A stretch of DNA of 64,000 nt from Deltaproteobacteria bacterium (GCA_030638575.1 DAOWEJ010000014.1:5041-69040); one strand, 5' to 3'. Shown: positions 6,866 to 63,991, counted from the stretch's first letter. Notes: generated from the sequence alone by a model not told the origin. Numbers and translations are program-made.

Positions 6866-6871
6866 AATAAT

Positions 6872-10995: not shown

Positions 10996-11030
10996 AACCG
11001 GATCACCTGAAAGCTCTTCTTTTAGGGTAA

Positions 11031-11206: not shown

Positions 11207-11252
11207 ATTACCTTTTAGGTTTATTTTAAAAAAGGCTAAATTAATACGAAAA

Positions 11253-11870: not shown

Positions 11871-11874
11871 TGAA

Positions 11875-12001
11875 GATGGCGTCGTAGAAAGTCCCATCTA
11901 CTGCGTTGCAGCGGTTTTTCAGACACTCGGCATACTACATGTATTGCCTCGTCCCTGAAAAACCGCTGCGCCTTGTATATGGAACTTTCTACTTAGCCAT
12001 C
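11875..12001. repeat. Hairpin element of the GATGGCGTCGTAGAAAGTC family
   Basis: The same element occurs reverse-complemented at 16811-16937 and 57467-57593. The core hairpin pairs gcagcggtttttcag with ctgaaaaaccgctgc. Confidence 0.85.
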
Positions 12002-12026
12002 GGTTATAATTTTTACGAGTTTATCA

Positions 12027-12704: not shown

Positions 12705-12716
12705 GGGGATTGTTTT

Positions 12717-13991
12717 ATGAAATTCAGACTGATCTATCCAAAATGGGCGAAACTTCAGAGGCAAACCGAGTTTCACCTTCCCCCCCACGGCCCTGTTGTT
12801 TTTGCCGCAACTTTGCCGGATTACGTAGAGGTGGAATTTATCGATGAAAACTTAGAAGAGATTAATTTTGATGATCCGGTAGATTTTGTGGGTATATCCA
12901 TGATGCTGACCATCCAGGTGAAAAGGGGATGGGAAATTGCCGATATATACAGAAAAAAGGGTGTTAAAGTAATCTTTGGCGGTATCTCTACCATGCTTCA
13001 CGCTGAAGAAACCATGAAGCGCGCAGATTCCGTATTTCTGGGTGAAGCAGAAGGAAGAATGGAGAAGGTGTTTTCGGACTTTGAGAAGAATAAATTGCAA
13101 AAGCTGTATAACTATATAGATGACAGGCCGCCTATAGAAATTGTAGGTACGGCACGAAGAGAAATTTTAAAAAGAGACCTGTATAATTACAAGGGTGTCC
13201 AGATGGTTGATCTGGTTCACGCGTCGAGAGGATGTAAATTTCATTGTTACCCCTGTGCTGTTGCCTACCTTGGCGGAAGAAAATTCAGACCGCGTCCCAT
13301 AGAAAAATCCATAGAGGAAATGGAGAGCATAGACAACAACCGATTGTTTCTTGTAGACAATTCACTTGCACAGGATACTAAATGGGAAATGGACCTTTTT
13401 CGGGAAATGATTCCCCTTAAAAAAAACTGGTGCAGTCACCCCATTGAAGATAAGCCGGAAGTGCTGGATCTGGCAGCCCAGGCAGGCGCATGGTATGTCT
13501 ACCAGGCTGTTTTTGACACATCAGATTTGATTAAAGACAGGATTAAACGATACCATGACCATGGAATCGGAGTTGAGGGCACCATCCTTCTCGGCCTGGA
13601 TACGCACACGGAAGACTATATTAAAAGACTTATAGATTTTCTTCTGGAAATCGATCTGGATCTTGCGGAATTTACAGTTCTGGCTCCATTCCCCCACACA
13701 AAAGCCTGGGATGATCTTCACAGGCAAAAGAGGATTTTCTCTTATGACTGGGATGAATACTCCGCCGATAGAGTAGTATATTATCCTAAACATATGACAC
13801 CGGAAAAGCTTCAGGAATTATTTCTATATGCCTGGGACGAATTTTACAAAGACGAACCCCAAAGAATCAAGATGTTCAAACTACTTCAGAAAGTGGTTAG
13901 AAAAGAAAAGGATGCTAATACATTTACTCCAAGAAGAAGAGAGCTCGCCAAACACGCCTTTGGAAGAAAAGTGGGTCTCGCAAAAGAATAA
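12717..13991 (+). CDS. B12-binding-domain radical SAM protein (class B), second copy
   Basis: N-terminal B12-binding-like region (DFVGISMM), then SRGCKFHCYPC (CX3CX2C); 424 aa. Confidence 0.8.
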   Translation: MKFRLIYPKWAKLQRQTEFHLPPHGPVVFAATLPDYVEVEFIDENLEEINFDDPVDFVGISMMLTIQVKRGWEIADIYRKKGVKVIFGGISTMLHAEETMKRADSVFLGEAEGRMEKVFSDFEKNKLQKLYNYIDDRPPIEIVGTARREILKRDLYNYKGVQMVDLVHASRGCKFHCYPCAVAYLGGRKFRPRPIEKSIEEMESIDNNRLFLVDNSLAQDTKWEMDLFREMIPLKKNWCSHPIEDKPEVLDLAAQAGAWYVYQAVFDTSDLIKDRIKRYHDHGIGVEGTILLGLDTHTEDYIKRLIDFLLEIDLDLAEFTVLAPFPHTKAWDDLHRQKRIFSYDWDEYSADRVVYYPKHMTPEKLQELFLYAWDEFYKDEPQRIKMFKLLQKVVRKEKDANTFTPRRRELAKHAFGRKVGLAKE

Positions 13992-36623: not shown

Positions 36624-37514
36624 TTAAGCGCCTAATTTTCTTCCAAGAAAAGGCTCAAAATGATACCATTCCAGAGGATGCTCGCGAAGGTTTTGCTGAA
36701 TAAGGTCTGCATAGGCCTGGGCTGATTTTTCTATGGCCTCCTTCCTGCCGGCGCGAGATGCCGCCTTGACATATATAGGCTCGGATATTGAAAAATGGTA
36801 ACTGCTTTTACCGCTGCGGAAGGAAAAAAAGATGAATAGGGGAGCGCCGGAAAGAAGGGCAAAGATGTGGGGTACTTCAGGGAGGTTTACATTATGATCT
36901 AAAAATTTAACCGAAACGGTTCTTTCATTTCCGCTCCAGATACGATCTCCGGTCAGTGAAACAAGGCCGCCTTCTTTTAAAAACTTTATTCCGTCAAGAA
37001 TATCAAAAGGAGACCCGCCTCGTTGATCCACTGCAACTATCCTGACTCCACTTTTAGAAAGGCTTTCTTTTTGAATACTCTCGATTTGTTCTTTATTCTT
37101 TATTCCCATATAAAGTAAAAGGCGCATTTCACGCTGCTGACGGCTTAAAAAATGTGCGGCTACCTCCCAGTTTCCCATATGGGACATAAGGATAATTCCA
37201 CCTGTCTTTTTTTCTATAGCTTCTTCAAGATGTTCCCATCCTGTCGATGTATAAGAGATGTTGCCGAAATTCTGAATTAAAAACCGGTCTAGAAATACAT
37301 GTGTAAAATTATGATACTGTCTCCAAGTACACCAGATATGGTATAACCTGTTTTTATCCGGGAAAAGGGCTCGATAAAAGCGCACACCGACAGCTACTTT
37401 CAAGGGAGAGAAAAGAAAAAAACCGGTGGAAATAGGCCAGGCAAATAATGTAAATACCCATGGGCCGAGCTTTTTGGTTAGAGCTATAAGGAATTTGTAA
37501 AATAATTTTTTCAT
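36624..37514 (-). CDS. LpxL/HtrB-type lysophospholipid (lipid A-like) acyltransferase (ApeD-like)
   Basis: N-terminal TM segment; catalytic-region motif ILMSHMGNWEVAA; 296 aa. Confidence 0.7.
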   Translation of the reverse strand: MKKLFYKFLIALTKKLGPWVFTLFAWPISTGFFLFSPLKVAVGVRFYRALFPDKNRLYHIWCTWRQYHNFTHVFLDRFLIQNFGNISYTSTGWEHLEEAIEKKTGGIILMSHMGNWEVAAHFLSRQQREMRLLLYMGIKNKEQIESIQKESLSKSGVRIVAVDQRGGSPFDILDGIKFLKEGGLVSLTGDRIWSGNERTVSVKFLDHNVNLPEVPHIFALLSGAPLFIFFSFRSGKSSYHFSISEPIYVKAASRAGRKEAIEKSAQAYADLIQQNLREHPLEWYHFEPFLGRKLGA

Positions 37515-50770: not shown

Positions 50771-53700
50771 TTATATCATAACCTTTGCAAAAACCCAGTA
50801 TTTTTTTCGTCCCGACCCCGAAGGCTTCACAGCTTCGATTTCAAAGCCGGACTTAAGCAGCAACTGTTTGATTTCCTCTGCTGATCTATGGCAGGGTTTT
50901 TTCCCGATAATCTTATGCCACATATTTTCACAACATGCCATCCGGGAAACAGCTTTATTAATAGGAGACGCTGCTCTTAAAAGCAGGCTGCCTCCAGGAC
51001 AAAGCTTTCCTTTGAGTCTTTTTAAAGTAAGTTTTAGTTCATCATCCTTTAAATATTGAATGGCATCGATCATCAGAGCGCAATCGACCGGGTCTTCGGT
51101 TTGTGGAATATCCGGCGCCCTTGCGCAATTAATATGTCCCCTTTGCCCGATTACTTTTGATGAAATCCTTGCCCTATGGCCGTCAGGTTCAATTCCGTAA
51201 ACTTTAGCTTTTGGGTATACTTCGAGAAGACAGACCGCGCAAAGACCATATCCGGTGTTAATGTCTATAATCTTTTCAGGTGACTTAATAAACTTGAACA
51301 GTTCCGTAAACATGGGATCAAACATTATTTTAAAACGGACAAACAGGCGTACGGATGCTTCCATGTGTCTGTATTGTTTTGCGATTCTTGTTAAGTGTTT
51401 TTTAGAACCCGGCTTAATATTTTCAGTGGGGAGCTTTTTATAAGTAAACAGATACTTTAGAACCGGCGGCAATATGGTAAAAGCGCCGATAAGGGAGTAG
51501 CCGATACCGAGAAATGAAGTTAGTCCTGCACTCTTTAACATGGAATGATCGGCAAAATTTAAAACGCCGAATCCTATTAAAGTGGATACTGATGCCAAAA
51601 ACACCGCCATCCTTATAAGTCCGAGTGACGTGTGATATTCATCAAAATAGCGCTGATATGACCTGACAAAGAAAAGTGAATAATCAATTCCCATACCCAT
51701 TACAACAATTGAGAGCATAAGTGCCGGTATATCCAGAGGGTGTCCGATAAGTTTCAGTGTGCCTAAAGTGCATACAAATGCAAATAATATAGGCGTCAGC
51801 GCAACAACGGTTAATGTCAAATCAAGAAAGAAAATAAACATTAAGATAACAACACTTATACCGATTATCATGACCATCTTAGTAAATGTAGAGGATAAAA
51901 GCTTTCCCAGCCTTTCTGAAAAGAAGTTGGGGTCAAACAGCCTCACCATTTGTGTGGACGCATATTTTAAATGGAAGGATTCAGCATTATAAGTCCTTCC
52001 CGAAGTTATGGTTGAAAACTGTATCCATGCAGGTCCGGCAGGATTTTTATTTCCGGATATTCCGACAATTGAGTAGAATCTTTCAGGGATATCACTATGG
52101 CTATAGTCAGGTTTAGAAATTGTGTTGAAAAAAGGGTTAAAGGCATCCGCTGCAAAGCCAAGATCCAAAGAGGTTTGTTTTATAGTATCTTTTAATGCTT
52201 TCACTTTGTTTTTATTCCAGAAATTTTTCCATGCAGAAAAATTTTCTTTCCCTTTTTTTTCTCCCGGGAAAACCATGGATGGAATAAAAGCGGAAAGCAA
52301 AGTGCCGGAAAGTACTTCCTGTTCCAGCAGTCCGGACAGCCTGTCTGATTTTCTCTGAAGTTCTTTAACACTCGATCCTTCCGTCATTAAAAAAATCCTG
52401 GAAAAAATATTTCCCCAGATGGTTGCAACAAGGGTTTCAGCAGCCTTTGTCTCTTTGCTGACTGTATTCATCGACCTTAAATCAACATGAAATTCAGGTT
52501 TTGCGAAACAAAACATTATCACGGCAAAAGCAAGCGCAGCCCACGCCTTGTATTTTCCGCCTGACAGAGCAAGTTTGCTGACGATGCCTTTAAGCGGCAG
52601 GGCCCTTTGTTTTTTTACAGGCGGCATACAAGGAAACATGAGAGGAAAAACCGTATGGACGAATAAAAATGAGAAGGCAATACCGAGTGCGGCGAACTGG
52701 CCGATTTGTGCAAGAACAGGAAACCCGCTGACGCAAAGAACAGAGAAAGCGCCGACTGTTGTGAGCGCGGATAGCAACCCAACAGCCCAGATTTCCCTTG
52801 CAGCTTCTTTTCCTGAAGTTTCATGCGGGCGGTCAAGGAACAGAAGATAAGCTATACCATGATCTACGGTGATCGATATTATTGCTCCCCCAAAGCCGAT
52901 TGTCAGGATGGAAATGGATTTATTCAAAAGGGAAAAAATAAAGAATGCAATGCAGGTTCCTGCAATGGCCGGTAGAAATGACAGCAATCCGATGTATGGT
53001 CGCGGGAAAGCTATAATAAGTAAAAATGCAATTCCGAGCATTGAAAACAAAATTACCTTTTTTATATCTCCTTTGGCCATGAGCTCATTATCCAGGGCCG
53101 CTCGATATGCACCGACCGGAGTCAGTGTGAATTTATATCCCTGATCGGCATATTGTTCGTTAATCTGTTTTGATAAATTATTTATAAGCTTAGTTGCCTG
53201 CCTGGCAAAAGTGGTATCAGTTCCGGAAGTTGCCGGTCTGGCAATCAAAAGAAGATGCCTGCCGTCGGAAGAGAGGAGCTGTCCTCTATAAAATTGCGCA
53301 TTCTGTGATGGAAAGAGATGCGACAATCTTGTCAAAACGATATTTCTAAAACCAAGAGGGTCCCTTGAAATCAGTTCGGACTGTCCGATTCCTTCCAGAT
53401 TTAGCAGATTTGAAAAATTTTCTTCAAGCTTTTTGCGAACCTTCGCAGGTTCCAGTAAAGGTTTTATATGTGTGTTAAGATCTCTTTCGGTGAAAAGTAC
53501 AGGCAGATTTTCCATTATGTAAAAAATCAACTCGGGTATGATGTTCTGGATCTCTTTCATCCCTGCGCTTTTAAAGAGCCCGCTTTCCATTAATTTTTTT
53601 TCAAGGAACTGGCCGGCTTCAACAAGAATATCCTGATCTTGCTTTTGATGACTGACATCAATCACCAGTTGATCCTGAGCCGGATGATTCATGATGACAT

Positions 53701-53854
53701 ACCTGGCATCTGATATAACGGGATCATGGACAGGCAGTGTCCCTATGATATCGGTGTCGATTTCAATCCTGTACAAACCGATACCTGCAAGACCTGCTAC
53801 AACAGCAGCTATTAAAATGATTAAAGGCAAATTAAAGTAAATCTTTTTTTTCAT
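50771..53854 (-). CDS. MMPL/RND-type lipid exporter fused to a C-terminal class I SAM methyltransferase
   Basis: About 800 aa with two 6-TM bundles (ApeM-like), then IDINTGYGLCAVCLLEVYPKAKVYGIEPD (SAM motif I) and LCPGGSLLL (motif III-like). Confidence 0.75.
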   Translation of the reverse strand: MKKKIYFNLPLIILIAAVVAGLAGIGLYRIEIDTDIIGTLPVHDPVISDARYVIMNHPAQDQLVIDVSHQKQDQDILVEAGQFLEKKLMESGLFKSAGMKEIQNIIPELIFYIMENLPVLFTERDLNTHIKPLLEPAKVRKKLEENFSNLLNLEGIGQSELISRDPLGFRNIVLTRLSHLFPSQNAQFYRGQLLSSDGRHLLLIARPATSGTDTTFARQATKLINNLSKQINEQYADQGYKFTLTPVGAYRAALDNELMAKGDIKKVILFSMLGIAFLLIIAFPRPYIGLLSFLPAIAGTCIAFFIFSLLNKSISILTIGFGGAIISITVDHGIAYLLFLDRPHETSGKEAAREIWAVGLLSALTTVGAFSVLCVSGFPVLAQIGQFAALGIAFSFLFVHTVFPLMFPCMPPVKKQRALPLKGIVSKLALSGGKYKAWAALAFAVIMFCFAKPEFHVDLRSMNTVSKETKAAETLVATIWGNIFSRIFLMTEGSSVKELQRKSDRLSGLLEQEVLSGTLLSAFIPSMVFPGEKKGKENFSAWKNFWNKNKVKALKDTIKQTSLDLGFAADAFNPFFNTISKPDYSHSDIPERFYSIVGISGNKNPAGPAWIQFSTITSGRTYNAESFHLKYASTQMVRLFDPNFFSERLGKLLSSTFTKMVMIIGISVVILMFIFFLDLTLTVVALTPILFAFVCTLGTLKLIGHPLDIPALMLSIVVMGMGIDYSLFFVRSYQRYFDEYHTSLGLIRMAVFLASVSTLIGFGVLNFADHSMLKSAGLTSFLGIGYSLIGAFTILPPVLKYLFTYKKLPTENIKPGSKKHLTRIAKQYRHMEASVRLFVRFKIMFDPMFTELFKFIKSPEKIIDINTGYGLCAVCLLEVYPKAKVYGIEPDGHRARISSKVIGQRGHINCARAPDIPQTEDPVDCALMIDAIQYLKDDELKLTLKRLKGKLCPGGSLLLRAASPINKAVSRMACCENMWHKIIGKKPCHRSAEEIKQLLLKSGFEIEAVKPSGSGRKKYWVFAKVMI

Positions 53855-53862
53855 ATTAGCGA

Positions 53863-54618
53863 TTACAATCTTTTTCTTATGGATTGCGGTACAAAGATCC
53901 TTTGTATGATAAGTCGTGAAAATGTGCAGGTGTTTCTTAAAAAATCGACAACCGGCCTGTAGTGGGATATACGCTTTTTCCCGGGCTCATAACTTACACG
54001 TATAGGCGCTTCTATTATCGGAATTTTTTTCCACTTTGCCTTTACAAGGATTTCAACCTCAAACTGGAATCTTTTGGACTTTGCATTCAAATTAAGCGAT
54101 TCAGGCAAAGGATATATCCTGAACCCGCTCTGGGAGTCGGTAATTATTGGGCCGCCCGAAGCAAGTACCCAGAAATTTGAAAATTTACGTCCGAACCGGC
54201 TTGTCCAGGGCACATTTTTTCCGGACATTCCTTTTCTTATTCCGACTATGATCGGCCTTTGGCCATCCGGAATAGCCAGGATTAAATTTATCAAGTCTTC
54301 AGGGTTATGCTGTCCATCTGCATCTATGGTTATCGCCCAGTCAGCGATCTTAACCGCTTCAGACCACCCTGTCATGATAGCCTTTCCCTTACCCAGGTTT
54401 ACTTTATGGCGCAGGAGGTTTATTCCCTTGATTTCCTTTAATATTTCCAGGGTGGAATCGGTTGATCCGTCATCCACCACAAAAACAGGCAATTTAAACT
54501 TCAGGGTTTCTTTTATTACATCGGCAACTTTTTGTTCATGGTTGTAAACGGGAATGATAAAGGCAAATCTTCCCTTTGCATGGATTTCTGACAATCTGTT
54601 GTTTGTAGATAATGCCAT
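53863..54618 (-). CDS. family 2 glycosyltransferase
   Basis: FIIPVYNHEQKV, VVDDGSTD and TIDADGQH (DxD) motifs. ATG at 54618 is preferred because the longer ORF enters a repeat. Confidence 0.85.
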   Translation of the reverse strand: MALSTNNRLSEIHAKGRFAFIIPVYNHEQKVADVIKETLKFKLPVFVVDDGSTDSTLEILKEIKGINLLRHKVNLGKGKAIMTGWSEAVKIADWAITIDADGQHNPEDLINLILAIPDGQRPIIVGIRKGMSGKNVPWTSRFGRKFSNFWVLASGGPIITDSQSGFRIYPLPESLNLNAKSKRFQFEVEILVKAKWKKIPIIEAPIRVSYEPGKKRISHYRPVVDFLRNTCTFSRLIIQRIFVPQSIRKRL

Positions 54619-54650
54619 AATTGTTTCAGTAAATTTAGACCAGGCGTAAT

Positions 54651-55000
54651 AGTTCAGCCACAAAGTCACAAAGACACAAAGATTATAATATAATTCTCTT
54701 GATGCCGTTTTTAACGAGAGACACGTTAAAATTAATGCAAGCGTTCGCGGAACGTTGAAATTAGAAAATAGAAATTGGAAATTCGGCCTTCATGCTTTTG
54801 TACGGTTGATGAACGCATTCAATTTGTATTCATTCAACTTGTAAACTCGTTTCATCTCTCCCGAATTTCTACTTTCCAATTTCCCCGCTTTCCTTTCGTT
54901 AAAGACGGGATCTGCGCTACGCTCCGACAAGTTTCAATCCGTAAACGGCAGATTTATAATTCATATCCTTCCTTTGAGCCTTTGTGCCTTAGTGGCTGGA
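54651..55000. repeat. Palindromic cassette with CACAAAG-triplet arms and a decayed interior
   Basis: Arms are agttcagccacaaagtcacaaagacacaaag / ctttgagcctttgtgccttagtggctgga. The interior, read on the reverse strand, begins ATGAATTATAAA like the 11031-11206 cassette. Confidence 0.75.
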
Positions 55001-55058
55001 CTAGTGCGACCAGGCAATTCGGCCGGCAAGACATCCGGGATGATTTTATAGAGGGCTC

Positions 55059-56774
55059 TTAAAACTCAGGTAAAAAAGCCATCGCCCAGGTTCCAGGACC
55101 CGTGTGGACACCAGTAGTTAAAGAAAGGGGTTGCAGTATAATCTCAGATGAAGGGAGGAGTTTTTTTATTTTTTTCCCGACAACATCATTTACCCACGAC
55201 CGGTTATCTGTATATTCCAGCATAATAAGGGGTGCTGAATCTTTATTTAAAGATTTTTCTATCTTATCAAGTGCGAATTTCAGTTGTCCTTCCTGATTTC
55301 TAACAGCCCCGACCTTTTTTGCTCCCTCTGCCGTCGGGCATACAATCGGCTTTACATTAAATGCATCACCAAAAAATGCATTGGTTTTAGACAACCTCCC
55401 ACCTGCAGCGAGGTATTTTAGCCTGTCAAGGAAGATATATTCCTCACAAAGATTAATTGCTCCTTTTGCAAATTCGATAACGGAATCAAGATCATTTGCT
55501 TTATTTGAGTATCTTGCTGTTGCAATCACGGCGATTCCCAAGCGGCCGGAAGCTGCGGTGGTGTCAATCACCATTAACCGGTCATCAGGATCGTTTCTTT
55601 CTTTCCAATTCATTACAACCTCATAATTTCCGGTGAAAACAGAACCCACACAAAGATATAATACCTTTTGATACTGTGCTAAAATTCTTTGATAATATTG
55701 ATGCCGTTCAAAAGTAGACGCCTGAGATGTTGAAACCTTTAATCCGTCTCTCATGGACTTGTAAAGTTCCAACCGGGGAAAATGCGTTTCCGGTAAGGAT
55801 TTATCACCTGCAGTTATATAGCTGTCAAGGAGTGTAAACCCTAAGTTTTGTGAATCTTCACGGGTTACGGAACCGGCTGCATCCGTCATGATGTGTATGA
55901 GCTTTTGGGTATTTTTTCGCTTGAACTCCTTGATTTGATTGTCTATATTATCTTCTGACCAGTTAAGGACTTTGCCTATGGATTCAATTTTTCTTTTAGC
56001 ATCTTCCCTGTTATCCGTATGCAGATGAACTTTTAAATAATCTTTATGTTCAATTACCACTACACTGCTGCCGCACTCTGAAAGTTTGCTGATATTTTCC
56101 CGGGTATTATCATCAAACCTGACTACAGTATCAACGCAATAACCTGCTTCGATTTCCTCATTAAATGAAGATGAAATCTTAAGAAAATCTTTGAATATTT
56201 CATTAATCGGCCGAAATTCATTATTCCTGCCGATCAGGCTGTTAAAAAAACCGTCTAGATATATAAAAATCCCTAAAGCACCTGAGTCCACCACACCGGC
56301 CTGTTTCAGCTTTGGAAGTAGTTTATTGGTTGATAACGTTGCCTTTTCAAGATGGTTTATTATTTTTACAACATATTCTTTTTTATTCTCAATATTATTT
56401 TTTTTCAAAAATTCGGCCAGGGCATCAAAAACCGTAAGCATTGTTCCTGTTACCGGGTTATGAACAGCCTGCCATGCCCTGTCTCTTCCCAATTTGGCAG
56501 CGCCGGGAAGAGTTTCAAATGAATCGGCTAAAAGAAAGCCGGAAAAAAAACGAGATGCAATATTCCCTGAATTTCCGCGGGCCGAAATTAAAAGCCTGTT
56601 AATTGTATTTTCAGTGTCCTTATTTAGCTGCCGCAACGGCGTAAGGCTTATGATTAGATTGCGTCCGGTATCACCGTCTGCAACAGGAAAAACATTAATA
56701 TCATCTAAAACATCAGACCATGCAGCAACCCGCTCCCCCCCTGAAATAAATGCGTTTTGAAAATCATATTCCAT
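55059..56774 (-). CDS. DAK2/DhaL-like domain fused to a DegV fatty-acid-binding domain
   Basis: N-terminus VADGDTGRNL (DhaL/FakA-N signature). The C-terminal ~285 aa is collinear with DegV (IHIMTDAAGS..., VSTSQAS, LDRLKYLAAGGRLS, GVHTGPGTWAMAF). Confidence 0.75.
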   Translation of the reverse strand: MEYDFQNAFISGGERVAAWSDVLDDINVFPVADGDTGRNLIISLTPLRQLNKDTENTINRLLISARGNSGNIASRFFSGFLLADSFETLPGAAKLGRDRAWQAVHNPVTGTMLTVFDALAEFLKKNNIENKKEYVVKIINHLEKATLSTNKLLPKLKQAGVVDSGALGIFIYLDGFFNSLIGRNNEFRPINEIFKDFLKISSSFNEEIEAGYCVDTVVRFDDNTRENISKLSECGSSVVVIEHKDYLKVHLHTDNREDAKRKIESIGKVLNWSEDNIDNQIKEFKRKNTQKLIHIMTDAAGSVTREDSQNLGFTLLDSYITAGDKSLPETHFPRLELYKSMRDGLKVSTSQASTFERHQYYQRILAQYQKVLYLCVGSVFTGNYEVVMNWKERNDPDDRLMVIDTTAASGRLGIAVIATARYSNKANDLDSVIEFAKGAINLCEEYIFLDRLKYLAAGGRLSKTNAFFGDAFNVKPIVCPTAEGAKKVGAVRNQEGQLKFALDKIEKSLNKDSAPLIMLEYTDNRSWVNDVVGKKIKKLLPSSEIILQPLSLTTGVHTGPGTWAMAFLPEF

Positions 56775-56776
56775 AT

Positions 56777-57196
56777 TTAAAAACCTAACGCCTTTCGTAT
56801 TTCATCCGGTATTTCAAACATAATTTCCATTTCAGGAAAATTTACGGCAACCTGTTCACTTCTTCCTTTTGTACAGATCTCGCCGTCATTCATGCGCCTT
56901 ATTTTAAAGTCGATTACGATCTTTATTTGTGCTTCGATAACGGTAGCTTTACAGGTAAATGTATCGCGATATCGCAGCGGAATAATATGTTTGGTGGATG
57001 TTTTGGTGATAGGAAACATGTAGTTAGTCTTTTTGTAAAACTCATAAAGATCGATACCGGCATTTCGAAATAATCCGAATCTTGCAATATCAAAATATTT
57101 CAAATAATTACCATGCCATACGATATGCATGGGGTCTAGATCGTGAAAAGGTACCGTCAACTTTTCTTCGTAACTTAATTGTTTATGTTTATCCAT
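56777..57196 (-). CDS. 4HBT/YbgC-type acyl-CoA or acyl-ACP thioesterase (hotdog)
   Basis: 139 aa. The pattern VPFHDLDPMHIVWHGNYLKYFDIARF is typical of the 4HBT family. Confidence 0.75.
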   Translation of the reverse strand: MDKHKQLSYEEKLTVPFHDLDPMHIVWHGNYLKYFDIARFGLFRNAGIDLYEFYKKTNYMFPITKTSTKHIIPLRYRDTFTCKATVIEAQIKIVIDFKIRRMNDGEICTKGRSEQVAVNFPEMEIMFEIPDEIRKALGF

Positions 57197-57466
57197 GGGT
57201 TCAAAAATATTTCCATATACATTGAGACCTTTGAAAAATTACCATTTTTCAAAGGTCTCTTCTGGTTCGGAGTCCACCAAAATGGAATATTTAAGACTTA
57301 TTTTGCAAAAAAATCAACAAATAATCAAAATATTGCCTGAAGTATTGCCTTTTTCCTGATAATGGTATATTTTACTAAGTTTATTTCAGTACATATTTTT
57401 GATAAATTTATAAAAAGTCTTATTTTGTTTTAATGCAGCTTATAGAAAGTCTTTGAATAAGCGCCG

Positions 57467-57593
57467 GATGGCTAAGTAAAAAGGCTCATATACAAGGCGT
57501 AGTGGTTTTTCAGGGAAGAGACTATACATATAGTATGTCGAGTTCCTGAAAAACCGCTACAACGCAGTAGATGAGACTTTTGACGACGCCATC
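57467..57593. repeat. Hairpin element of the GATGGCGTCGTAGAAAGTC family (third copy)
   Basis: Collinear with 16811-16937. Confidence 0.85.
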
Positions 57594-57620
57594 AATTTTA
57601 ATAGGCAAACGGAGTAATAA

Positions 57621-58049
57621 ATGAAGATTAGCGAAGTTCCTCAAGATCAAGGCATGATGACTGATGATGTCCATGAAGTCTGTTACGCCCTTGACAAGGA
57701 CGGCCGCTACGTGCTTGCTGCAAGTTCCGGATGGGAACCAAAAAACATCACAAACGATCAGGCGTGGGAAGTTATTGAGAAGCAGGTAACAAAGGCTCTA
57801 AAGGATATACATGCAGGAAAGCAGAGCCCTCTGGCTTTTCACATGGCAAAAAATCAAATGAACATAAGTCTGCTTTCTAAATATGTCCGATTCAGCCGGT
57901 GGCAGGTAAGGAGGCATCTAAAACCTGCTGTTTTCAAACGGTTAAAACCGGATATTCTTGAGCGATATGCCGATGTTTTTGAAATTACGGTAAAGCAGCT
58001 TCAAGAATATCCAGAAAATATAGACCAACGATTTTACAGGAATCTATAA
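57621..58049 (+). CDS. hypothetical protein, possible HTH
   Basis: 142-aa ORF directly preceding the BtrH-like gene. The central region SPLAFHMAKNQMNISLLSKYVRFSRWQVRRHL looks HTH-like. Confidence 0.4.
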   Translation: MKISEVPQDQGMMTDDVHEVCYALDKDGRYVLAASSGWEPKNITNDQAWEVIEKQVTKALKDIHAGKQSPLAFHMAKNQMNISLLSKYVRFSRWQVRRHLKPAVFKRLKPDILERYADVFEITVKQLQEYPENIDQRFYRNL

Positions 58050-58054
58050 AAATA

Positions 58055-59056
58055 ATGAAAATTGATTTTAAGCACAGGCATTCGGCCCACTGCGAAAGTG
58101 GGGTTTCCTCAAATTTACTTTTTCACTACGGAATAGATATCAGCGAGGCCATGGCTTTTGGAATCGGCGGCGGTCTCTTTTTTGGATATTTGCCATTTAT
58201 AAAGGTTAATAAACTTCCACTTACAACCTTTCGTTGCGAAGTTGGCGGCATCTTTAAACGCTTGACACGAAAAATTGGCGTTGGGGTTTACTGGCAGAAA
58301 TTCCGCAGCCCTGAAAAGGCCATGGATGCCTTAGATCACAGTCTCGAAGAAGGTATTCCAGTCGGGTGCAGGACCGGAGGATACTGGCTTCCATATTTTC
58401 CTTCGGCATTCAGGTTTCATTTTAATATGCATAATCTCGTTGTTTTTGGCAAAGAAGGAGACAAGTATCTAATCAGCGATCCTGTTTTTCCCGAGCCGGT
58501 AGTTTGTAACCGAAAAGACCTGATTAAGGCCCGTTTTGCCAAAGGTGCCCTTGCACCTAAAGGCACCATGTATTATCTAACCAGTGTGCCGGAAAAGGTG
58601 GATTTTTCTCCAGCCATCATTAAGGGTATAAAAGAGGTTTGCCGAAGGATGCTTAAAACACCTGGGCCCATCATCGGGGTTCGAGGTATCCGTTTTCTGG
58701 CAAACCAGGTCGAGAAATGGCCAAAAAAGTTCGGAAAACGCAAGACATCTCTTTATCTTGGACAGCTCATCCGTATGCAGGAAGAACTGGGAACTGGCGG
58801 AGGTGGGTTTCGTTTTATGTATGCTGCATTCCTGCAAGAAGCCGCCGGGATTTTAAAGGAAAATCGATTGCTTGATCTGTCACAAAAAATGACAAAGGCG
58901 GGTGACCGGTGGCGGGAATTTGCAGTTGTTGCATCACGTAATTGTAAAAACCGGGCATCGGACTCGGATTCATTCGAAGCAATGTCTGATATTTTGCGGG
59001 ATTGCGCCAACAGGGAAGCCGAGGTATATAAAGAGTTGATGGCAGTTGTTCATTAG
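58055..59056 (+). CDS. BtrH-N/DUF4872-like protein (putative ACP-dependent acyl/peptidyl transferase)
   Basis: The N-terminus FKHRHSAHCESGVSSNLLFHYGIDISEAMAFGIGGGLFFGY resembles the BtrH N-terminal Cys-peptidase-like domain (recognition from memory). Confidence 0.5.
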   Translation: MKIDFKHRHSAHCESGVSSNLLFHYGIDISEAMAFGIGGGLFFGYLPFIKVNKLPLTTFRCEVGGIFKRLTRKIGVGVYWQKFRSPEKAMDALDHSLEEGIPVGCRTGGYWLPYFPSAFRFHFNMHNLVVFGKEGDKYLISDPVFPEPVVCNRKDLIKARFAKGALAPKGTMYYLTSVPEKVDFSPAIIKGIKEVCRRMLKTPGPIIGVRGIRFLANQVEKWPKKFGKRKTSLYLGQLIRMQEELGTGGGGFRFMYAAFLQEAAGILKENRLLDLSQKMTKAGDRWREFAVVASRNCKNRASDSDSFEAMSDILRDCANREAEVYKELMAVVH

Positions 59057-59061
59057 AAATG

Positions 59062-59226
59062 GAGCGTCCCTTCAGGACTTGAAGAGCAGCCCTACGGGCT
59101 TTGAGGAGCGGCCTTTGGCCTTGAGGAGCGTCCCGCTCTATGCGGGACTTTAAGCCTAAAGCGTAGCGCTCATCAAGCAAAGCGATCCTCAAACGAAGTG
59201 CTCTTCAATCCCGCCGGGGCGGGATC
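59062..59226. repeat. GAGC...TTGAG mini-hairpin module array (copy 3 of 3), ending 8 nt before the ACP ATG
   Basis: Units: gagcgtcccttcaggacttgaa, gagcagccctacgggctttgag, gagcggcctttggccttgag, gagcgtcccgctctatgcgggactttaa. These are followed by reversed units and the terminal hairpin atcccgccggggcgggat. Confidence 0.85.
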
Positions 59227-59234
59227 AGTTTATT

Positions 59235-59483
59235 ATGACAATCAAAGAAAAATTAAAAAAGATAATTGTTGAAGCGCTGAACCTGGATGACATCACACCG
59301 GAAGAAATTAAGGATGATGAGCCGTTGTTCGGGAAAAAACTCGGCCTTGATTCCATTGATGCCGTTGAAATAGTATTCCAGGTTGAACAACATTTTGGCA
59401 TTGGAATTAAAAATATGAAGGAAGGACGTCCCGCCCTGCAGTCGATTAACACTCTTGCTGCTTTTATCGAGGCCCGCCTTTAG
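59235..59483 (+). CDS. acyl carrier protein
   Basis: 82 aa with LGLDSIDAVEIV Ser motif. Confidence 0.9.
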   Translation: MTIKEKLKKIIVEALNLDDITPEEIKDDEPLFGKKLGLDSIDAVEIVFQVEQHFGIGIKNMKEGRPALQSINTLAAFIEARL

Positions 59484-59485
59484 AC

Positions 59486-60688
59486 ATGAAACCTGTAAAA
59501 CCCGTAGCCATAGCCGGAATCGGTTGTATCTGCTCTGCCGGCTTGATACTAAAGGACTGCATCGATTTTTTGTATAAGGGAGAGCGTCACCCCGCACCAC
59601 CAGTCAATTTTTCCACAAGGTTAACCTTTCCGGTTTTTGAAATATTAGAAGATTTTTTCCCGTCAGACTTAATTAAAAAAACCAATTTGTTGCGTACATG
59701 CAAATTGGCATTGACGGCAACACTCGAAGCAATCAGCGATGCCGAGCTGGATAGAAAAATACTTGAAAACAAACGTGTGGGTGTGTGCATAGGAACAAAC
59801 GTTGGGAGTTCAATGAACAATGAGGCATTCTGCCTGGATGATGGAGATGGCCGAGATCCGTTTATTTCTCCTGTTAAAAGATTCCTGATTAGCAACCCAA
59901 CCAGCAGTATTGCTGCTGAATTCGGCACTACCGGGCCTTTGCAAACCGTGGTAAATGCATGTTCGTCCGGAAGCGACGCCCTGGGACTGGCTGCTTCATG
60001 GATCCGGTCGGGAATATGTGATGTGGTAATTGCCGGCGGGGCGGATGAAATGTATCAGATTACCTATACAGGCTTCAAATCACTGCTTATTAATGACGAT
60101 TCCCCGTGCAAACCCTTTGATATAAATCGAAAAGGCCTTAACCTGGGAGAAGGAGCGGCAATTTTTATACTGGTATCGGAGGAAATCCTTAAGGAAAGAA
60201 AAAAAGATCCTCGGGCTTATATCCTGGGTTACGGATCGGCTTCGGATGCGTATCATCATACAAAAACCAGACCGGACGGCAAGGGCCTGAAGGTTGCTAT
60301 TCAAGAGGCCATGGAAACCAGCAAGATGGTCCCTTCGGATATTGCATTTATTAATGCTCATGGAACTGGAACCCTGGACAATGATCTTGTGGAAAGCTGT
60401 GTTTTAAACGAAATATTTCCTGGAGTCCCCTTTTTTTCGACAAAAGGTTACACAGGGCACACCCTTGGTGCGGCAGGAGCTATTGAAGCGGCATTCACCA
60501 TAGCCTGCCTTGAACAAGGCATGGTGCCGGCAAACGTCGGCTTTACTACCCCAGATCCAAAAATGCCTCCTGCATATCCGGTTCAACAAAACTCAACTAT
60601 TAACGGCAATACAGCTCTTTCCGAAACCCTTGCTTTTGGCGGCAACAATTCGGTTTTAGTTCTGTCAACAGGAGAGCATCCGGCTTGA
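59486..60688 (+). CDS. beta-ketoacyl synthase
   Basis: NACSSGSDA active-site Cys; HGTGT; GHTLGAAGA; C-terminal AFGGNNS. Confidence 0.9.
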   Translation: MKPVKPVAIAGIGCICSAGLILKDCIDFLYKGERHPAPPVNFSTRLTFPVFEILEDFFPSDLIKKTNLLRTCKLALTATLEAISDAELDRKILENKRVGVCIGTNVGSSMNNEAFCLDDGDGRDPFISPVKRFLISNPTSSIAAEFGTTGPLQTVVNACSSGSDALGLAASWIRSGICDVVIAGGADEMYQITYTGFKSLLINDDSPCKPFDINRKGLNLGEGAAIFILVSEEILKERKKDPRAYILGYGSASDAYHHTKTRPDGKGLKVAIQEAMETSKMVPSDIAFINAHGTGTLDNDLVESCVLNEIFPGVPFFSTKGYTGHTLGAAGAIEAAFTIACLEQGMVPANVGFTTPDPKMPPAYPVQQNSTINGNTALSETLAFGGNNSVLVLSTGEHPA

Positions 60689-61788
60689 AAATTTCAATTA
60701 AGGGTATAGGTGTTTTAGGTGGATTCGGTTGCGGCATAGCTGAACTCGAGGAGGCTCTTAATGCCGGGAAAAGCTCTGTAAGCACCGTTGTTATAAAAAC
60801 CACGGCAGGCGACATTGACGTCCCTGCTTTTCTGGCAAATGCCGACATGCTTGAATCTTTTGTCGATAAAAGAAACTTGCGACGGATCGATCATTACACC
60901 CGTATGGCTCTTTTGGGATGTTATCTTGCCCTTGAAGATGCCGACATGCTGGATGTAGATCGCGGGCACATGGGAATCGTTGTTGCTACGGGCTATGGAG
61001 CGACCTGCAATACTTTTGATTTGCAACATTCGGTTATTACAGAAGCGGATCCGTTTTGCTCTCCGACCCAGTTTTCAAATTCGGTTCATAACGTGGCAGC
61101 CACCCAAATTTCTATTTTGCTTAAAGAGCTGGGTCCAAATTTATCCGTTAGCCATTATGACATGTCCATTACGTCGGCTTTTTCAAGTGCCTGCCAGTGG
61201 CTGCAGGAAGAGCGTGTAGAAACCGTGCTGGTTGGAGGTGTAGATGAATTTTGCAAGATACTGGGTTACTTTTGGCATTGCCTTTATAATGCGGGTAATG
61301 AAAAGGTGGACTTTGCCGGTAAAAAGAGCCCGGAGCATGCAATTATTGGTGAAGGCGCAAATTTCTTTGTTTTAACCAGGGAAAAGGAAGCTGCTTCTCC
61401 TTATGGTTTTATTGAAGCTGTCCGGATGGGAAATTTTGAACGCAAAGGGATAAACTTGCCTGAAAATGCCGCTTTCTTTATAGGTGCAGACGGTTACAGC
61501 GGGTGTGACGATAAATATGAAAGTTTTCTTTCTGAAAAGGCTAAAGTTGCTTCTTATTCGCATCTGTATGGCGGCATACCTGTCGGTATGGGCTTTGATA
61601 TTGCCATTGCCGCCCTGGGCAATAAAGCCGGAACTGTCTTTAAGTCTGCTGAATCTCCCATTTATAATCAGGGCCGGCTGGATGTGATCGAGCATGACGA
61701 AGATCTTGGCTCAAAACGCATCTGTTGCTTAAAGCTTGGTGCAGGCGGCAGCTTTGGATGGATTGGTTTAAATCGCTCAAACTTCTAA
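60685..61788 (+). CDS. KS-like partner protein (chain-length-factor-like)
   Basis: Thiolase-fold-like sequence (VVATGYG, VLVGGVDE, GEGANFFVL) without a recognisable CSSG/HGTGT triad; 4-nt overlap with the KS gene. Confidence 0.65.
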   Translation: MKISIKGIGVLGGFGCGIAELEEALNAGKSSVSTVVIKTTAGDIDVPAFLANADMLESFVDKRNLRRIDHYTRMALLGCYLALEDADMLDVDRGHMGIVVATGYGATCNTFDLQHSVITEADPFCSPTQFSNSVHNVAATQISILLKELGPNLSVSHYDMSITSAFSSACQWLQEERVETVLVGGVDEFCKILGYFWHCLYNAGNEKVDFAGKKSPEHAIIGEGANFFVLTREKEAASPYGFIEAVRMGNFERKGINLPENAAFFIGADGYSGCDDKYESFLSEKAKVASYSHLYGGIPVGMGFDIAIAALGNKAGTVFKSAESPIYNQGRLDVIEHDEDLGSKRICCLKLGAGGSFGWIGLNRSNF

Positions 61789-61844
61789 CCCGCTTTAAAA
61801 CCCGATGAATTCGATTTTTTAAAAAGCCGTCAATAATTGAAAAA

Positions 61845-62633
61845 ATGCAGATAATAGATACAGCAGAAAAAAGAGGCGAAACGGCCGGTGAAAAAGCTCT
61901 CGTTGTTAAGGACCTTGTCAAAAAATACAAAGGTTCATCCGGGCCTGCTCTCTCCGGATTGGATATTTCTGTTAACTACGGAGAGATTTTTGGTCTTTTA
62001 GGTCCAAACGGTGCCGGAAAGACAACAGCAATATCCATAATGTGCGCGCTTTTACGGCCAACAAGCGGAAGTGTCACAATTTGTGGTGTTGATGTCCTCA
62101 AACAGCCAAATCGCATAAGGAGATTAATAGGCCTGGTACCCCAGGATATCGCTCTTTATTCTAATTTAACGCTGCGGGAAAACCTGCGTTATTTTGGCCG
62201 AATCTGCGGGCTTAAAGGGCAAGAACTAAAAGATCGGATTGCCGAATGTATAGAGATAGTCGGGCTGGAGAAAAAGGCTGACCAGCGCATATTTACATAT
62301 TCGGGCGGTATGAAACGTCGCGCTAATCTGGCAGCAGGTATTTTACACAAGCCACGTATCCTTTTCCTTGATGAACCGACTGTGGGAATCGATGCACAGT
62401 CACGAAATATGATCCTGGAGAAACTCACCCTGCTCAAAGAAAACGGGACAACCATGATTTATACAACCCATTATATGGGCGAAGCAGAACAGCTTTGCGC
62501 TTGTGTTGCCATTATTGACGAAGGACATATTATTGCCGAAGGGCCTCCTCAGGAATTAATTAAACAGGCCCCGGGACATGCCAGTTTGAGAGATCTGTTT
62601 CTGGCTCTAACCGGAAAACGCCTGAGAGATTGA
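61845..62633 (+). CDS. ABC transporter ATP-binding protein (ABC-2 type)
   Basis: GPNGAGKTT, YSGGMKRRANLAAG, LFLDEPTVGID. Confidence 0.9.
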   Translation: MQIIDTAEKRGETAGEKALVVKDLVKKYKGSSGPALSGLDISVNYGEIFGLLGPNGAGKTTAISIMCALLRPTSGSVTICGVDVLKQPNRIRRLIGLVPQDIALYSNLTLRENLRYFGRICGLKGQELKDRIAECIEIVGLEKKADQRIFTYSGGMKRRANLAAGILHKPRILFLDEPTVGIDAQSRNMILEKLTLLKENGTTMIYTTHYMGEAEQLCACVAIIDEGHIIAEGPPQELIKQAPGHASLRDLFLALTGKRLRD

Positions 62634-63991
62634 ATATTATGTTTAAAATAGGCGCGACAGTTATCAAGGAACTTTTATTACTCTGGCGAGACAGGGCCGG
62701 TATGCTTGTGCTCTTTGTTATGCCCGCTCTGCTCGTGCTTGTAATTACATTGGTTCAGGAAAATGTTCTGAGAACGATGGGGGAAAGCAGCACCAGGATA
62801 CTGCTTGTAGATAAGGACGGGCAGTCCCTTGGGCAGACTGTTGAAAAAAAGCTGCTTGAATCCGGCCTTGTTGAAATCATAAAAGAGATAGATGGAAGAG
62901 AAGTTGACGAAAAAGAAGCTGTAGAGGCCGTTATAAATAGTGATTTTCAGCTGTGTATTATCATTCCTAAAGGAATTACAAAAGCGGTAAAAGCAAAGGC
63001 CAGGCAGGTTGTAATGAAGTCCCTTTCCATGGACGACACTTCGGCCGTAAATAAAACACCCGGAAAGGAAATACAACGGCCCGACATTGCCGTCTATTTC
63101 GATCCAACCGTACTTGGAGGATTTCGATCCGCTATCTTAAACTCTCTCAACCTGGTAATTGTCGGCATAGAAATAGACGAAAAAATGAAGGTGCTATCCA
63201 GGCTCTTGCCTGAATATATAAATATGAGTATTCGAAAGGAGATGGGTCCTTTTGTGCCTGAGGATCTCATTAAGGATATTCCCGGGATACAACTTGATTT
63301 TAGCAGCAATCCCCTGCTGGAGGTAAGGGAAAAACCGGCCTACGAAAATGCTTTTGAAAAAACACCTACCTCTGTGCAGCAAAACGTTCCTGCATGGGCG
63401 CTGTTCGGCATATTTTTTATTGTTGTTCCCATGGCAGGAGGTTTAATAAAAGAAAGGCACGATAAGACATTATCACGGCTTCTGACCATGCCGGTTTCAT
63501 ACATAACTCTGATTTCAGGTAAGGTCATTGCATATGTTTTTGTCTGCCTGATCCAGTTTGGGCTTATATTGGTCATCGGAAAGTTCCTACTTCCCCTTTT
63601 AGGGTCACCCATGCTGGAGATCGGTTCTGATCCCATGGCACTTATTATCATAACCTTAAGCGCCATACTCGCTGCAACAGGTTACGGGGTTTTGCTCGGA
63701 ACAGTTGCCAGAACCTATGAGCAGGCCTCAATGTTCGGTCCCATTTCAATAGTTATTGCTGCCGCCCTGGGCGGGATTATGGTTCCGGTGTATGCCATGC
63801 CGAAGATAATGCAAAAAATAAGCGCCTTTTCTCCTCTAGAATGGGGTCTCGATGCATTTCTGGACATTTTTGTTCGGGGGGGAAATATAAAAACCGTTCT
63901 TTTCGACGTGTTTTTACTGCTTTCCTTTTTTGTTGTCACCATGTTTGTATCGTGGATTTACTTCTTTCACAAAACGCGAAACGGTGCGTAG
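62630..63991 (+). CDS. ABC-2 family transporter permease
   Basis: N-terminal TM segment, large periplasmic loop, and a C-terminal 5-TM bundle; 4-nt overlap with the ATPase gene. Confidence 0.8.
   Translation: MNIMFKIGATVIKELLLLWRDRAGMLVLFVMPALLVLVITLVQENVLRTMGESSTRILLVDKDGQSLGQTVEKKLLESGLVEIIKEIDGREVDEKEAVEAVINSDFQLCIIIPKGITKAVKAKARQVVMKSLSMDDTSAVNKTPGKEIQRPDIAVYFDPTVLGGFRSAILNSLNLVIVGIEIDEKMKVLSRLLPEYINMSIRKEMGPFVPEDLIKDIPGIQLDFSSNPLLEVREKPAYENAFEKTPTSVQQNVPAWALFGIFFIVVPMAGGLIKERHDKTLSRLLTMPVSYITLISGKVIAYVFVCLIQFGLILVIGKFLLPLLGSPMLEIGSDPMALIIITLSAILAATGYGVLLGTVARTYEQASMFGPISIVIAAALGGIMVPVYAMPKIMQKISAFSPLEWGLDAFLDIFVRGGNIKTVLFDVFLLLSFFVVTMFVSWIYFFHKTRNGA

Follow-up and report, generated by a model that had tools for sequence, protein, structure and literature searches.

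A 64,000-nucleotide stretch of DNA from a Deltaproteobacteria bacterium (GCA_030638575.1, DAOWEJ010000014.1:5041-69040), hereafter the window and the basis of all numbering, carries two sets of predicted lipid genes, one of dialkylresorcinol (DAR) type and one resembling aryl polyene (APE) clusters, that meet in the interval from 50771 to 63991. An earlier note had described this interval as a single lipid sub-cluster of 11 genes. All 11 open reading frames (ORFs) were found at the coordinates given there, profile searches recovered the domains named for them, and the same gene calls were made on three independent metagenome contigs, among them contig L001. The grouping into one sub-cluster did not survive: the interval is where two conserved and separable modules, which most likely cooperate, meet back to back. 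Module B is a minus-strand operon (57196-50771) for a thioesterase, a FakA-DegV kinase, a family 2 glycosyltransferase (GT2) and an MMPL-methyltransferase. Module C, on the plus strand from 57621 to 63991 and continuing past the window, encodes DarG, DarH, an acyl carrier protein (ACP), a ketosynthase (KS), a KS partner resembling a chain-length factor (CLF) and an ABC-2 exporter. Module A denotes the lipid-cluster core at 0.4-14 kb. Although the genes of module C begin and end as previously stated, the unit does not stop at 63991; on contig L001 it runs for about 4 kb more, with genes for a YegS-like kinase, DarB and DarA.

Close homologues of these proteins are annotated as coming from metagenome-assembled genomes of Desulfobacterales, Thermodesulfobacteriota or "Deltaproteobacteria", and the source is an uncultured sulfate-reducer-type bacterium. 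An origin in a flexirubin locus of Bacteroidota, suggested by a G+C content of about 40% and by the DarG and DarH matches, was rejected, on two grounds: the homologues carry the names Desulfobacterales or Thermodesulfobacteriota, and the scores fell short of the flexirubin equivalog cut-offs.

Gene neighbourhoods were compared in two sets, one of 80 metagenome-contig loci seeded with the fatty acid kinase (Fak) fusion of module B and one of 70 genomic loci seeded with DarH. Neighbourhood counts rest on loci of +/-10 kb, and denominators below 80 in the Fak set are the loci with enough flank. The coordinates of the main features, together with their BLASTP matches to the APE proteins of Escherichia coli CFT073 (threshold E<=1e-3), are collected in Table 1.

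Table 1. Features of modules B and C and of the related pieces elsewhere in the window, with BLASTP matches to APE proteins.
Position	Strand	Feature	Evidence	APE match
57621..58049	+	DarG-family protein, 142 aa; C-terminal two thirds an Xre/Cro-type helix-turn-helix fold	NF053536, 164 bits (cut-off 70)	
58055..59056	+	DarH, BtrH-related acyltransferase	NF053550, 482 bits (cut-off 300)	
59235..59483	+	Dedicated ACP, DarC-type, ApeE-like	PP-binding, 40.8 bits; GLDSI serine kept	ApeE, 45%, E 4e-20
59486..60688	+	KS with both KS domains, Cys-His-His intact	Pfam; best PDB match 9s5h_B, catalytic residues aligned	ApeO, 33%
60685..61788	+	CLF-like KS partner, Asp replacing the catalytic Cys	Pfam ketoacyl-synt N-terminal domain only	
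61845..62633	+	ABC transporter ATPase, DrrA/NodI type	ABC_tran, 110 bits; TIGR01188, 271 bits, under cut-off	
62630..63991	+	ABC-2 permease	ABC2_membrane_3, 133 bits; L001 gene call starts at window 62639	
57197..57620		Divergent intergenic region between modules B and C	about 200 bp longer than in relatives	
56777..57196	-	Hotdog (4HBT) thioesterase, ApeK-like; stop abuts the Fak start	Pfam 4HBT_2, 36.6 bits	ApeK, 32%, full length, E 7e-23
55059..56774	-	Single-chain fatty-acid-kinase-like protein: FakA kinase, FakA middle and complete DegV domains	Pfam	
54670..55058		389-bp spacer between Fak fusion and GT2, with pieces of the dispersed intergenic repeat	blastn matches to 11036-11187	
53863..54669	-	GT2, equivalent to the ApeJ N-terminal half	Pfam Glycos_transf_2, 82.8 bits	ApeJ residues 10-230, 32%, E 1.5e-30
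50771..53854	-	MMPL/RND-type exporter, ApeM-like, with C-terminal class I S-adenosylmethionine-dependent methyltransferase (aa ~850-1008)	Pfam, BLASTP	ApeM, 22% over 607 aa, E 1e-11
36624..37514	-	LpxL-like acyltransferase, orphaned from the minus-strand operon	Lip_A_acyltrans, 52 bits	ApeJ residues 358-545, 24%, E 2e-13
467..13991		Core of the same lipid cluster (module A)	profile searches, BLASTP, synteny in relatives	

The plus-strand genes form a dialkylresorcinol module of a described type

The first gene of module C had been called a helix-turn-helix (HTH)-like ORF, and this holds even though Pfam HTH_26 stopped at 21.0 bits, just short of its cut-off of 22: residues 46-135 of the AlphaFold model have a pLDDT above 85, and the top Foldseek matches are all Xre/Cro-type HTH proteins. 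DarH carries the Pfam domains BtrH_N (160 bits) and DUF4872 (207 bits). The gene for the CLF-like partner overlaps the KS gene by 4 bp and has 9s5h_C as its second-best match in the PDB; its designation as a KS-like partner was apt, given the Asp at the Cys position and the lack of a recognisable C-terminal KS domain.

Beyond the window end, contig L001 carries three further genes. A lipid kinase of the YegS/Rv2252/BmrU family begins about 160 bp on (L001 12153-13040; TIGR00147, 154 bits, cut-off 119), placed between the ABC-2 permease and DarB, a position at which about 150 related loci compared show no counterpart. DarB, a KS III of the StlD/DarB family, lies about 1.4 kb past the end (L001 13570-14715; NF005293, 559 bits, cut-off 450). 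The adjoining 307-aa ORF (L001 14979-15902) is assigned as DarA: it has no Pfam or NCBIfam match, but homologues at 83-84% and 71% identity are named "dialkylresorcinol condensing enzyme DarA" by NCBI, and a 44% homologue stands directly upstream of DarB in a flexirubin cluster of Maribacter.

Among the 70 DarH loci, DarG was present in 68, the ABC ATPase in 58, the permease in 50, DarB in 47, the ACP in 45, the KS in 37 and the CLF-like partner in 29, and these loci come from Desulfobacterales, Desulfobulbales, Bacteroidota, Gammaproteobacteria and Holophagaceae. Judged by its gene content, the plus strand is thus a DAR module, and modules of this type have been described before. Two of its parts, the BtrH-like transferase and the "second exporter", had been taken for unusual additions to an APE locus; they are core parts of this known module, since DarG and the ABC genes accompany DarH across loci, and they are standard in DAR and flexirubin clusters. 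The possibility raised earlier that the genes might belong to a characterised pathway is partly borne out by this half, which is typical of a known kind, though its host group is unusual. A literature search for tested functions of DarH or DarG, and for DARs in sulfate reducers, returned nothing specific.

The minus-strand operon contains a conserved single-chain fatty acid kinase

The 571-aa Fak fusion of module B matched Dak2 (64 bits), FakA-like_M (42 bits) and DegV (138 bits, profile positions 2-279 of 280). NCBIfam models of YloV/FakA cover residues 5-292 only, residues 293-569 being a full DegV domain, and the FakA_VfrB equivalog reached 129 bits against a cut-off of 975. The two-component organisation, with a separate FakB and a FakA C-terminal domain, was not found, the gene specifying one chain. 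These domain assignments are based on sequence profiles and on PDB sequence matches (FakA N-domain, E 7e-23, with 8vip and 7w7h aligned); an AlphaFold model made from an 11-sequence alignment had a mean pLDDT of 56 and was not used. The kinase part keeps the Mg/ATP motifs DGDTG, ARGNSG and GVVDSG, and the DegV half keeps TSQ, S..TG, GGR and H.GPG, which are invariant in 11 homologues and which we take to be the motifs lining the fatty-acid carboxylate site of FakB.

Homologues of the fusion number in the thousands, and the nearest 120, at 65-100% identity, all have the same three domains. Identity across Desulfobacterales is 53-77%, the 80 loci of the metagenome scan lying at 53-76%, and at E<=1e-30 the fused FakA-DegV architecture has 349 cluster representatives, many of them full-length matches of 560-620 aa. 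A literature search found no paper describing a FakA-FakB fusion.

Such conservation and such a wide spread of fused architectures, together with the housekeeping role that the literature gives FakA/FakB systems in Firmicutes, would also fit a general scavenging function, in which the thioesterase and the Fak fusion (and the YegS-like kinase) pass free fatty acids into phospholipid and neighbour the lipid genes by chance. The neighbourhoods make this very improbable. The same thioesterase lies directly upstream of the Fak fusion in 64 of the 70 loci with room for it, a GT2 or an LpxL-like acyltransferase comes next after the fusion in 54 of 58, and the LpxL-like acyltransferase, which is of ApeJ type, is present in 33 of 34. 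Where flanks reach at least 12 kb, core genes (ketoreductase, LolA, dehydratase, ACP, KS-CLF and B12 proteins) follow in 18 of 25 loci, a linkage not expected of a general scavenging enzyme. Because of this conserved linkage to the thioesterase, to the GT2 or acyltransferase and to the core genes, we regard the Fak fusion as a gene of the cluster rather than a housekeeping neighbour. An MMPL gene is present in 14 of 34 Fak loci.

The GT2 comes after the Fak fusion in most related loci, across a spacer of 9-100 bp in the gene maps of two relatives. The exporter at the end of the operon is a protein of 1027 aa that matched Pfam MMPL (72 bits, cut-off 20.5) and Methyltransf_23 (33.7 bits, cut-off 27); all its matches to NCBIfam models of HAE3/MMPL/HpnN type were under cut-off. 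The methyltransferase domain, which may act on O or on C, gave a single weak PDB sequence match (E 0.005) and no BLASTP match to ApeB. At least 15 related loci, at identities as low as 46%, have it joined in frame to the MMPL core, and the exporter is free of it in two others (L011 and L037). The exporter-methyltransferase and Fak fusions depart from APE loci, as had been proposed, but they are not peculiar to this locus and recur in the cluster family.

Module B and the core match the attachment and export genes of aryl polyene clusters

The BLASTP matches of module B to ApeK, the N-terminal half of ApeJ and ApeM (Table 1) uphold the earlier description of the minus-strand genes as APE-style. 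In the core, the ketoreductase matched ApeQ (45%, E 1.6e-70), the KS-CLF fusion ApeO (34%, E 7e-54), the dehydratase at 5127-5537 ApeI (31% over 59 aa, E 3e-9) and the LolA-like protein ApeL (24% over 106 aa, E 3e-6); of the two ACPs there, that at 9046-9312 matched ApeE at 41% (E 3e-16) and that at 4342-4602 more weakly (24%, E 3e-7). By Pfam there are two dehydratases, one ApeP-like and one ApeI-like, and no enoyl reductase family was found beside the set of KS and CLF, ketoreductase, two dehydratases and ACP. Equivalents of the whole APE attachment and export set (ApeK, ApeJ, ApeM and ApeL) are present.

Of the APE set proposed in the earlier note, ApeE, ApeJ, ApeK and ApeM are supported and ApeD is not. 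Among the window proteins compared, none matched ApeD, ApeH, ApeG, ApeN, ApeB or ApeC by BLASTP, although distant homology (for example of a 225-aa core ORF to ApeN) is possible. The lone acyltransferase at 36.6 kb was accordingly rejected as ApeD: it matches ApeJ residues 358-545. On these alignments the two-domain ApeJ is split into two genes here, of which the acyltransferase is the second half, and module B appears to be the finishing and export operon of a Desulfobacterales type II polyketide synthase (PKS) cluster of APE-like kind.

These homologies, with those of the module C ACP and KS, which are closest to ApeE and ApeO, and the glycosyl and methyl functions that Pfam confirms, are what would be seen if the interval were one APE-style sub-cluster with new tailoring additions, making a glycosylated or methylated acyl lipid free of resorcinol. 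We consider this improbable. The genes for DarB and DarA are just downstream on one and the same contig, DarB is accompanied in several phyla by DarG, DarH and the ABC pair, and the lone acyltransferase is ApeJ-like, not ApeD-like.

The three pieces once formed one cluster

Module A contains a KS, two radical S-adenosylmethionine (SAM) genes, the ACP at 4342-4602, the ApeI-like dehydratase, a B12-radical SAM gene (5516-6865), the KS-CLF fusion and the ACP at 9046-9312 and, divergent from these, genes for the ApeP-like dehydratase, the ApeQ-like ketoreductase, the LolA-like protein, the 225-aa ORF and a B12-binding, radical SAM-like protein. The gene at 5516-6865 satisfies the TIGR04072 equivalog for lipid biosynthesis B12-binding/radical SAM proteins (411 bits, cut-off 360), and with three further proteins of radical SAM type the core encodes four in all (1723-6865 and 12717-13991). 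Of the cluster's genes, the one for the 424-aa B12-like protein is the best conserved among relatives (70-81% identity). Contigs carrying the window's leftmost genes stop within 200 bp of its left end.

About 80 related Desulfobacterales loci were examined for linkage of the thioesterase-Fak-GT2 operon to the core and the acyltransferase. The LpxL-like acyltransferase, which the window places 13 kb from the exporter-methyltransferase, follows it directly at four loci. Two further loci (L004 and L005) have one continuous cluster of thioesterase, Fak fusion, GT2, LpxL-like acyltransferase, ACP, KS, PlsC-like acyltransferase and B12-radical SAM genes, and next to it, on the opposite strand, genes for the B12-binding protein, a hypothetical protein, LolA and the ketoreductase, which are the genes at 10.2-14 kb in the window. 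In all, the core is contiguous with the operon of thioesterase, Fak fusion, GT2 and acyltransferase at 16 loci, these two included. Because they are contiguous in relatives, the three pieces once formed one cluster, and the earlier proposal that they belong together stands.

In the window, the acyltransferase and the exporter are separated by about 13 kb (37646-50397) of mobile and defence-type genes, which looks like an inserted mobile or defence island. It encodes an AAA_14/DUF4143 ATPase (PADLOC PDC-S01), a Y1 (IS200-like) transposase with a DnaA-C HTH, a 1082-aa LRR-Roc-COR protein and a 457-aa ThsB-like TIR protein (PDC-S66). The core is set apart from the rest of the window by a complete phosphate regulon block on the minus strand (14164-22114; pstS-like, pstC, pstA, pstB, phoU, a phoB-like regulator and a PhoR/PnpS-like kinase) and other housekeeping genes.

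The DAR module recurrently adjoins the APE-like cluster

Every pairwise adjacency of modules A, B and C was found across genomes. Modules B and C are divergent, as in the window, at eight other loci and in tandem at two more; the DAR module adjoins core genes in L008, and L009 has it inserted, in the same orientation, between the genes for the 225-aa ORF and the B12-like protein, neighbours that only 12 bp separate in the window. Modules A and B adjoin at many loci. In flexirubin, made from linked clusters, and in arcuflavin, made from unlinked ones (PMC3949708), the resorcinol is esterified to a polyene. Given all the pairwise adjacencies and these precedents for DAR-polyene esters, a joint product is the likelier outcome, and it is probably a DAR ester. 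The product predicted earlier was incomplete in that it omitted the resorcinol. In our reading, to which we assign a probability of about 0.6, the modules cooperate in an outer-membrane phenolic-lipid pigment of the flexirubin/arcuflavin type.

Several observations weigh against this reading. In the Desulfosarcina group and elsewhere the DAR module is found by itself within +/-10 kb, genes of modules A or B lie near only 19 of the 70 DarH loci, DAR genes occur at only seven of the 80 Fak loci, and in one close relative DarA-DarB and DarG-DarH occupy separate places on one contig. The ACP, KS and CLF of module C resemble APE enzymes (ApeE 45%, ApeO 33%) as much as any others and could, by sequence, build a second polyene chain. 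Four flexirubin equivalogs were missed: flexirubin_DarG on the 142-aa ORF (159 bits, cut-off 170), FlxB (308, cut-off 340), LolA2 (99, cut-off 125) and resorcinol_DarB, a narrower model than that which DarB satisfies (478, cut-off 550). The Maribacter cluster (L063), run as a positive control, gave FlxA 888 bits (cut-off 700), DarB 631 (550), DarG 206 (170) and DarH 514 (300). No homologue of the aryl-starter enzymes tyrosine ammonia-lyase (TAL), 4-coumarate:CoA ligase (4CL), XanB2 or ApeH was found in the window, and the acyl partner may therefore be something other than an aryl polyene. The role given to the Fak fusion is purely inferred, and we know of no member of the cluster family whose product chemistry has been established.

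The window ORFs of at least 120 aa were also scanned for an FlxA-type TAL and a CoA ligase or adenylating enzyme, and contained none, although such genes may lie elsewhere in the genome; the scan left out a few overlapping ORFs, and one 134-aa ORF was checked against PADLOC only.

Free DARs serve as signals or antioxidants in Photorhabdus and Pseudomonas, and modules B and C might likewise be independent neighbours, the one serving only an APE-like lipid and the other exporting free DARs through its own ABC pump, with their adjacency marking an integration hotspot. This would suit a DAR module that is self-contained and often alone (as at eight loci, those of Desulfosarcina among them), the 73 Fak-cluster loci that lack DAR genes, the divergent transcription of the two modules, each with its own promoter region, and a region prone to rearrangement, with dispersed repeats and a 13-kb island. 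We hold it possible but rather unlikely: the adjacency recurs in at least four arrangements, one of them an insertion inside an operon of ketoreductase, LolA, hypothetical and B12 genes (L009), the DarH acyltransferase would have no obvious role in a free DAR, and in both studied systems the DAR is esterified to a polyene. Cooperation of the modules thus remains the reading that we prefer.

A proposed pathway

Gene identities, catalytic motifs and conserved neighbourhoods were seen directly, and every chemical step of the following scheme is inferred. Enzymes of the DarB family condense two fatty-acyl-derived thioesters to a cyclohexanedione, which DarA aromatises, and by family membership DarB and DarA would make a resorcinol here. 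The ApeE-like ACP and the KS/CLF pair of module C may supply a dedicated acyl-ACP or build a second polyene chain. DarH, to judge from its relationship to BtrH and its family name, would transfer the ACP-bound acyl chain to a resorcinol hydroxyl, the ABC-2 pump would export the product, and DarG may be an Xre-fold partner or regulator.

On the side of module B, the ApeK-like thioesterase would free the acyl chain from its ACP, and the fused FakA-DegV kinase might re-activate the free chain as an acyl-phosphate for a glycerolipid anchor, bypassing PlsX. By analogy with APE clusters, the GT2 and the LpxL-like acyltransferase, together equivalent to ApeJ, would glycosylate the glycerolipid anchor and acylate the sugar, the exporter-methyltransferase would methylate and export the product, and the LolA-like proteins would carry it to the outer membrane.

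A bolder form of this joint reading, which we put forward tentatively and think unlikely as a whole, is that the widespread "ladderane-type" clusters of Desulfobacterota make a radical-SAM-modified polyene chain, that DarH, in lineages with the DAR module, esterifies this chain to the DAR, and that the conserved thioesterase and Fak fusion are a dedicated route, by way of free acid and acyl-phosphate, that brings the specialised chain from its ACP into a glycerolipid anchor. If true, the product would be an anaerobe counterpart of flexirubin, and no earlier fatty acid kinase would be known to serve specialised lipid assembly alone.

Antioxidant pigments of the outer membrane include DAR-polyene esters (flexirubin, arcuflavin) as well as aryl-polyene lipids, and both have been studied in aerobes and host-associated bacteria. 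The same modules are now found in strictly anaerobic sulfate-reducer lineages, joined in several arrangements to radical-SAM "ladderane-type" clusters. The DAR half being of a known kind, what is new is the documented linkage of DAR modules to these APE-like clusters in Desulfobacterales, along with the division of ApeJ between two genes, the repeated occurrence of an exporter fused to a methyltransferase, and a single-chain Fak tied to the cluster. Module B comes from a family of clusters that is widespread but uncharacterised, in which the conserved Fak fusion is the least explained part and is now singled out as a step in assembling such lipids. Cultured bacteria carry the DAR module (Desulfosarcina variabilis, D. 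cetonica and Desulfonema limicola), in which resorcinol esters can be searched for. A hybrid product, if it exists, would bear on how anaerobes protect their envelope from transient oxidative stress and would show what the enzymes shared with ladderane biosynthesis do.

Intergenic repeats and other features of the window

A perfect palindrome with 16-bp arms lies at 57224-57259, just upstream of the thioesterase start (GAGACCTTTGAAAAAT-TACC-ATTTTTCAAAGGTCTC); it was considered as a shared operator of the divergent operons and rejected, as it is not present in the equivalent spacers of 10 relatives. The same spacer holds, at 57446-57595, a copy of a dispersed intergenic repeat of about 150 bp with an internal inverted repeat, whose copies are 84-98% identical and also occur at 16790-16939, 11875-12001 and 22602-22644. 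Further repeat pairs are 54953-54998 with 11036-11081 and 50692-50766 with 4656-4730. Repeat copies lengthen several lipid-cluster spacers relative to other genomes; they may be REP/MITE-like elements linked to the Y1 transposase.

Between 50 and 64 kb, promoter-like sites were not enriched (31, against 28.7 in shuffles), and terminator-like sites were in modest excess (24, against 14.9), which is uninformative on operon structure. An Rfam scan of the interval found no RNA family. Directly downstream of the LpxL-like acyltransferase is a minus-strand thiamine pyrophosphate (TPP) riboswitch (36279-36387; RF00059, 74 bits, gathering score 54), which overlaps the annotated TTG start (36344) of an operon (33780-36344) for an ABC transporter that includes an NMT1/THI5-like binding protein. 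On the plus strand, apolipoprotein N-acyltransferase is seemingly split into two ORFs about 340 bp apart, one with LNT_N (30294-30866) and one with CN_hydrolase from profile position 85 (31209-31859), which could reflect a pseudogene or an assembly error. A release factor 2-type gene (32185-33072, plus strand) has a PCRF match that begins at profile position 50, and such a start fits the programmed +1 frameshift that prfB usually has close to its 5' end.

Comparison with known systems

The Fak fusion shares its kinase motifs, the FakA middle domain and the DegV carboxylate-site motifs with the FakA/FakB systems of Firmicutes (Staphylococcus aureus, Streptococcus). It differs in being one polypeptide, in which a complete DegV replaces the FakA C-terminal domain, and in that its gene is part of a specialised lipid cluster in a Gram-negative anaerobe. 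In butirosin biosynthesis, BtrH moves an ACP-bound acyl group to an acceptor; DarH shares its BtrH_N domain but adds DUF4872, and its presumed acceptor is a phenol instead of an aminoglycoside amine.

By its genes, the window cluster follows the plan of the APE clusters of E. coli CFT073 and Xenorhabdus doucetiae (ApeA-R), in which a chain would be made by a type II PKS, placed on a glycosylated lipid anchor and exported to the outer membrane by RND and LolA proteins. Here, however, the methyltransferase is fused to the exporter rather than being a free ApeB, ApeJ is split, and there are in addition radical SAM enzymes, a Fak fusion and a DAR module.

The anammox "ladderane" cluster of type II fatty acid synthesis and radical SAM genes is syntenic with one in Desulfotalea psychrophila (Rattray et al., PMC2649909), and the window core falls into this class because of its TIGR04072 equivalog and additional radical SAM genes. 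The two also share a pair of KS and inactive KS, the amxFabF heterodimer (9s5h B, C) being the best or near-best solved relative of the KS pairs here. The anammox description includes no DAR module, Fak fusion or APE-type export set. Despite the syntenic cluster, Desulfotalea has no ladderanes, and none are known outside anammox bacteria (PMC2649909); antiSMASH finds "ladderane"-type biosynthetic gene clusters of unknown function in Desulfobacterota (PMC9902471).

Flexirubin clusters (flxA-Y with darAB in Chitinophaga pinensis, and those of Flavobacterium johnsoniae and Maribacter) have the same DarA-DarB-DarG-DarH-ABC-ABC block, set among genes for KS, CLF, ketoreductase, dehydratase, LolA, thioesterase, acyltransferase, glycosyltransferase and exporter. 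The Maribacter cluster differs in having neither a Fak fusion nor the B12/radical SAM set.

In Azoarcus sp. BH72, the darA-darK genes provide a DAR that is joined to a polyene from physically separate APE-type clusters, giving arcuflavin (PMC3949708). That locus differs from ours in its inserted toxin-antitoxin pair and its XanB2/AMP-ligase aryl starter; the window comes from an anaerobic member of the Desulfobacterales, shows no aryl-starter genes, and pairs its DAR module with a cluster that has radical SAM genes and a Fak fusion. Common to both loci are DarA, DarB and an ACP (DarC), a KS (DarJ) adjacent to an uncharacterised partner (DarK), a small conserved ORF followed by a BtrH-like protein, and the ATPase and permease of an ABC transporter (PMC3949708).

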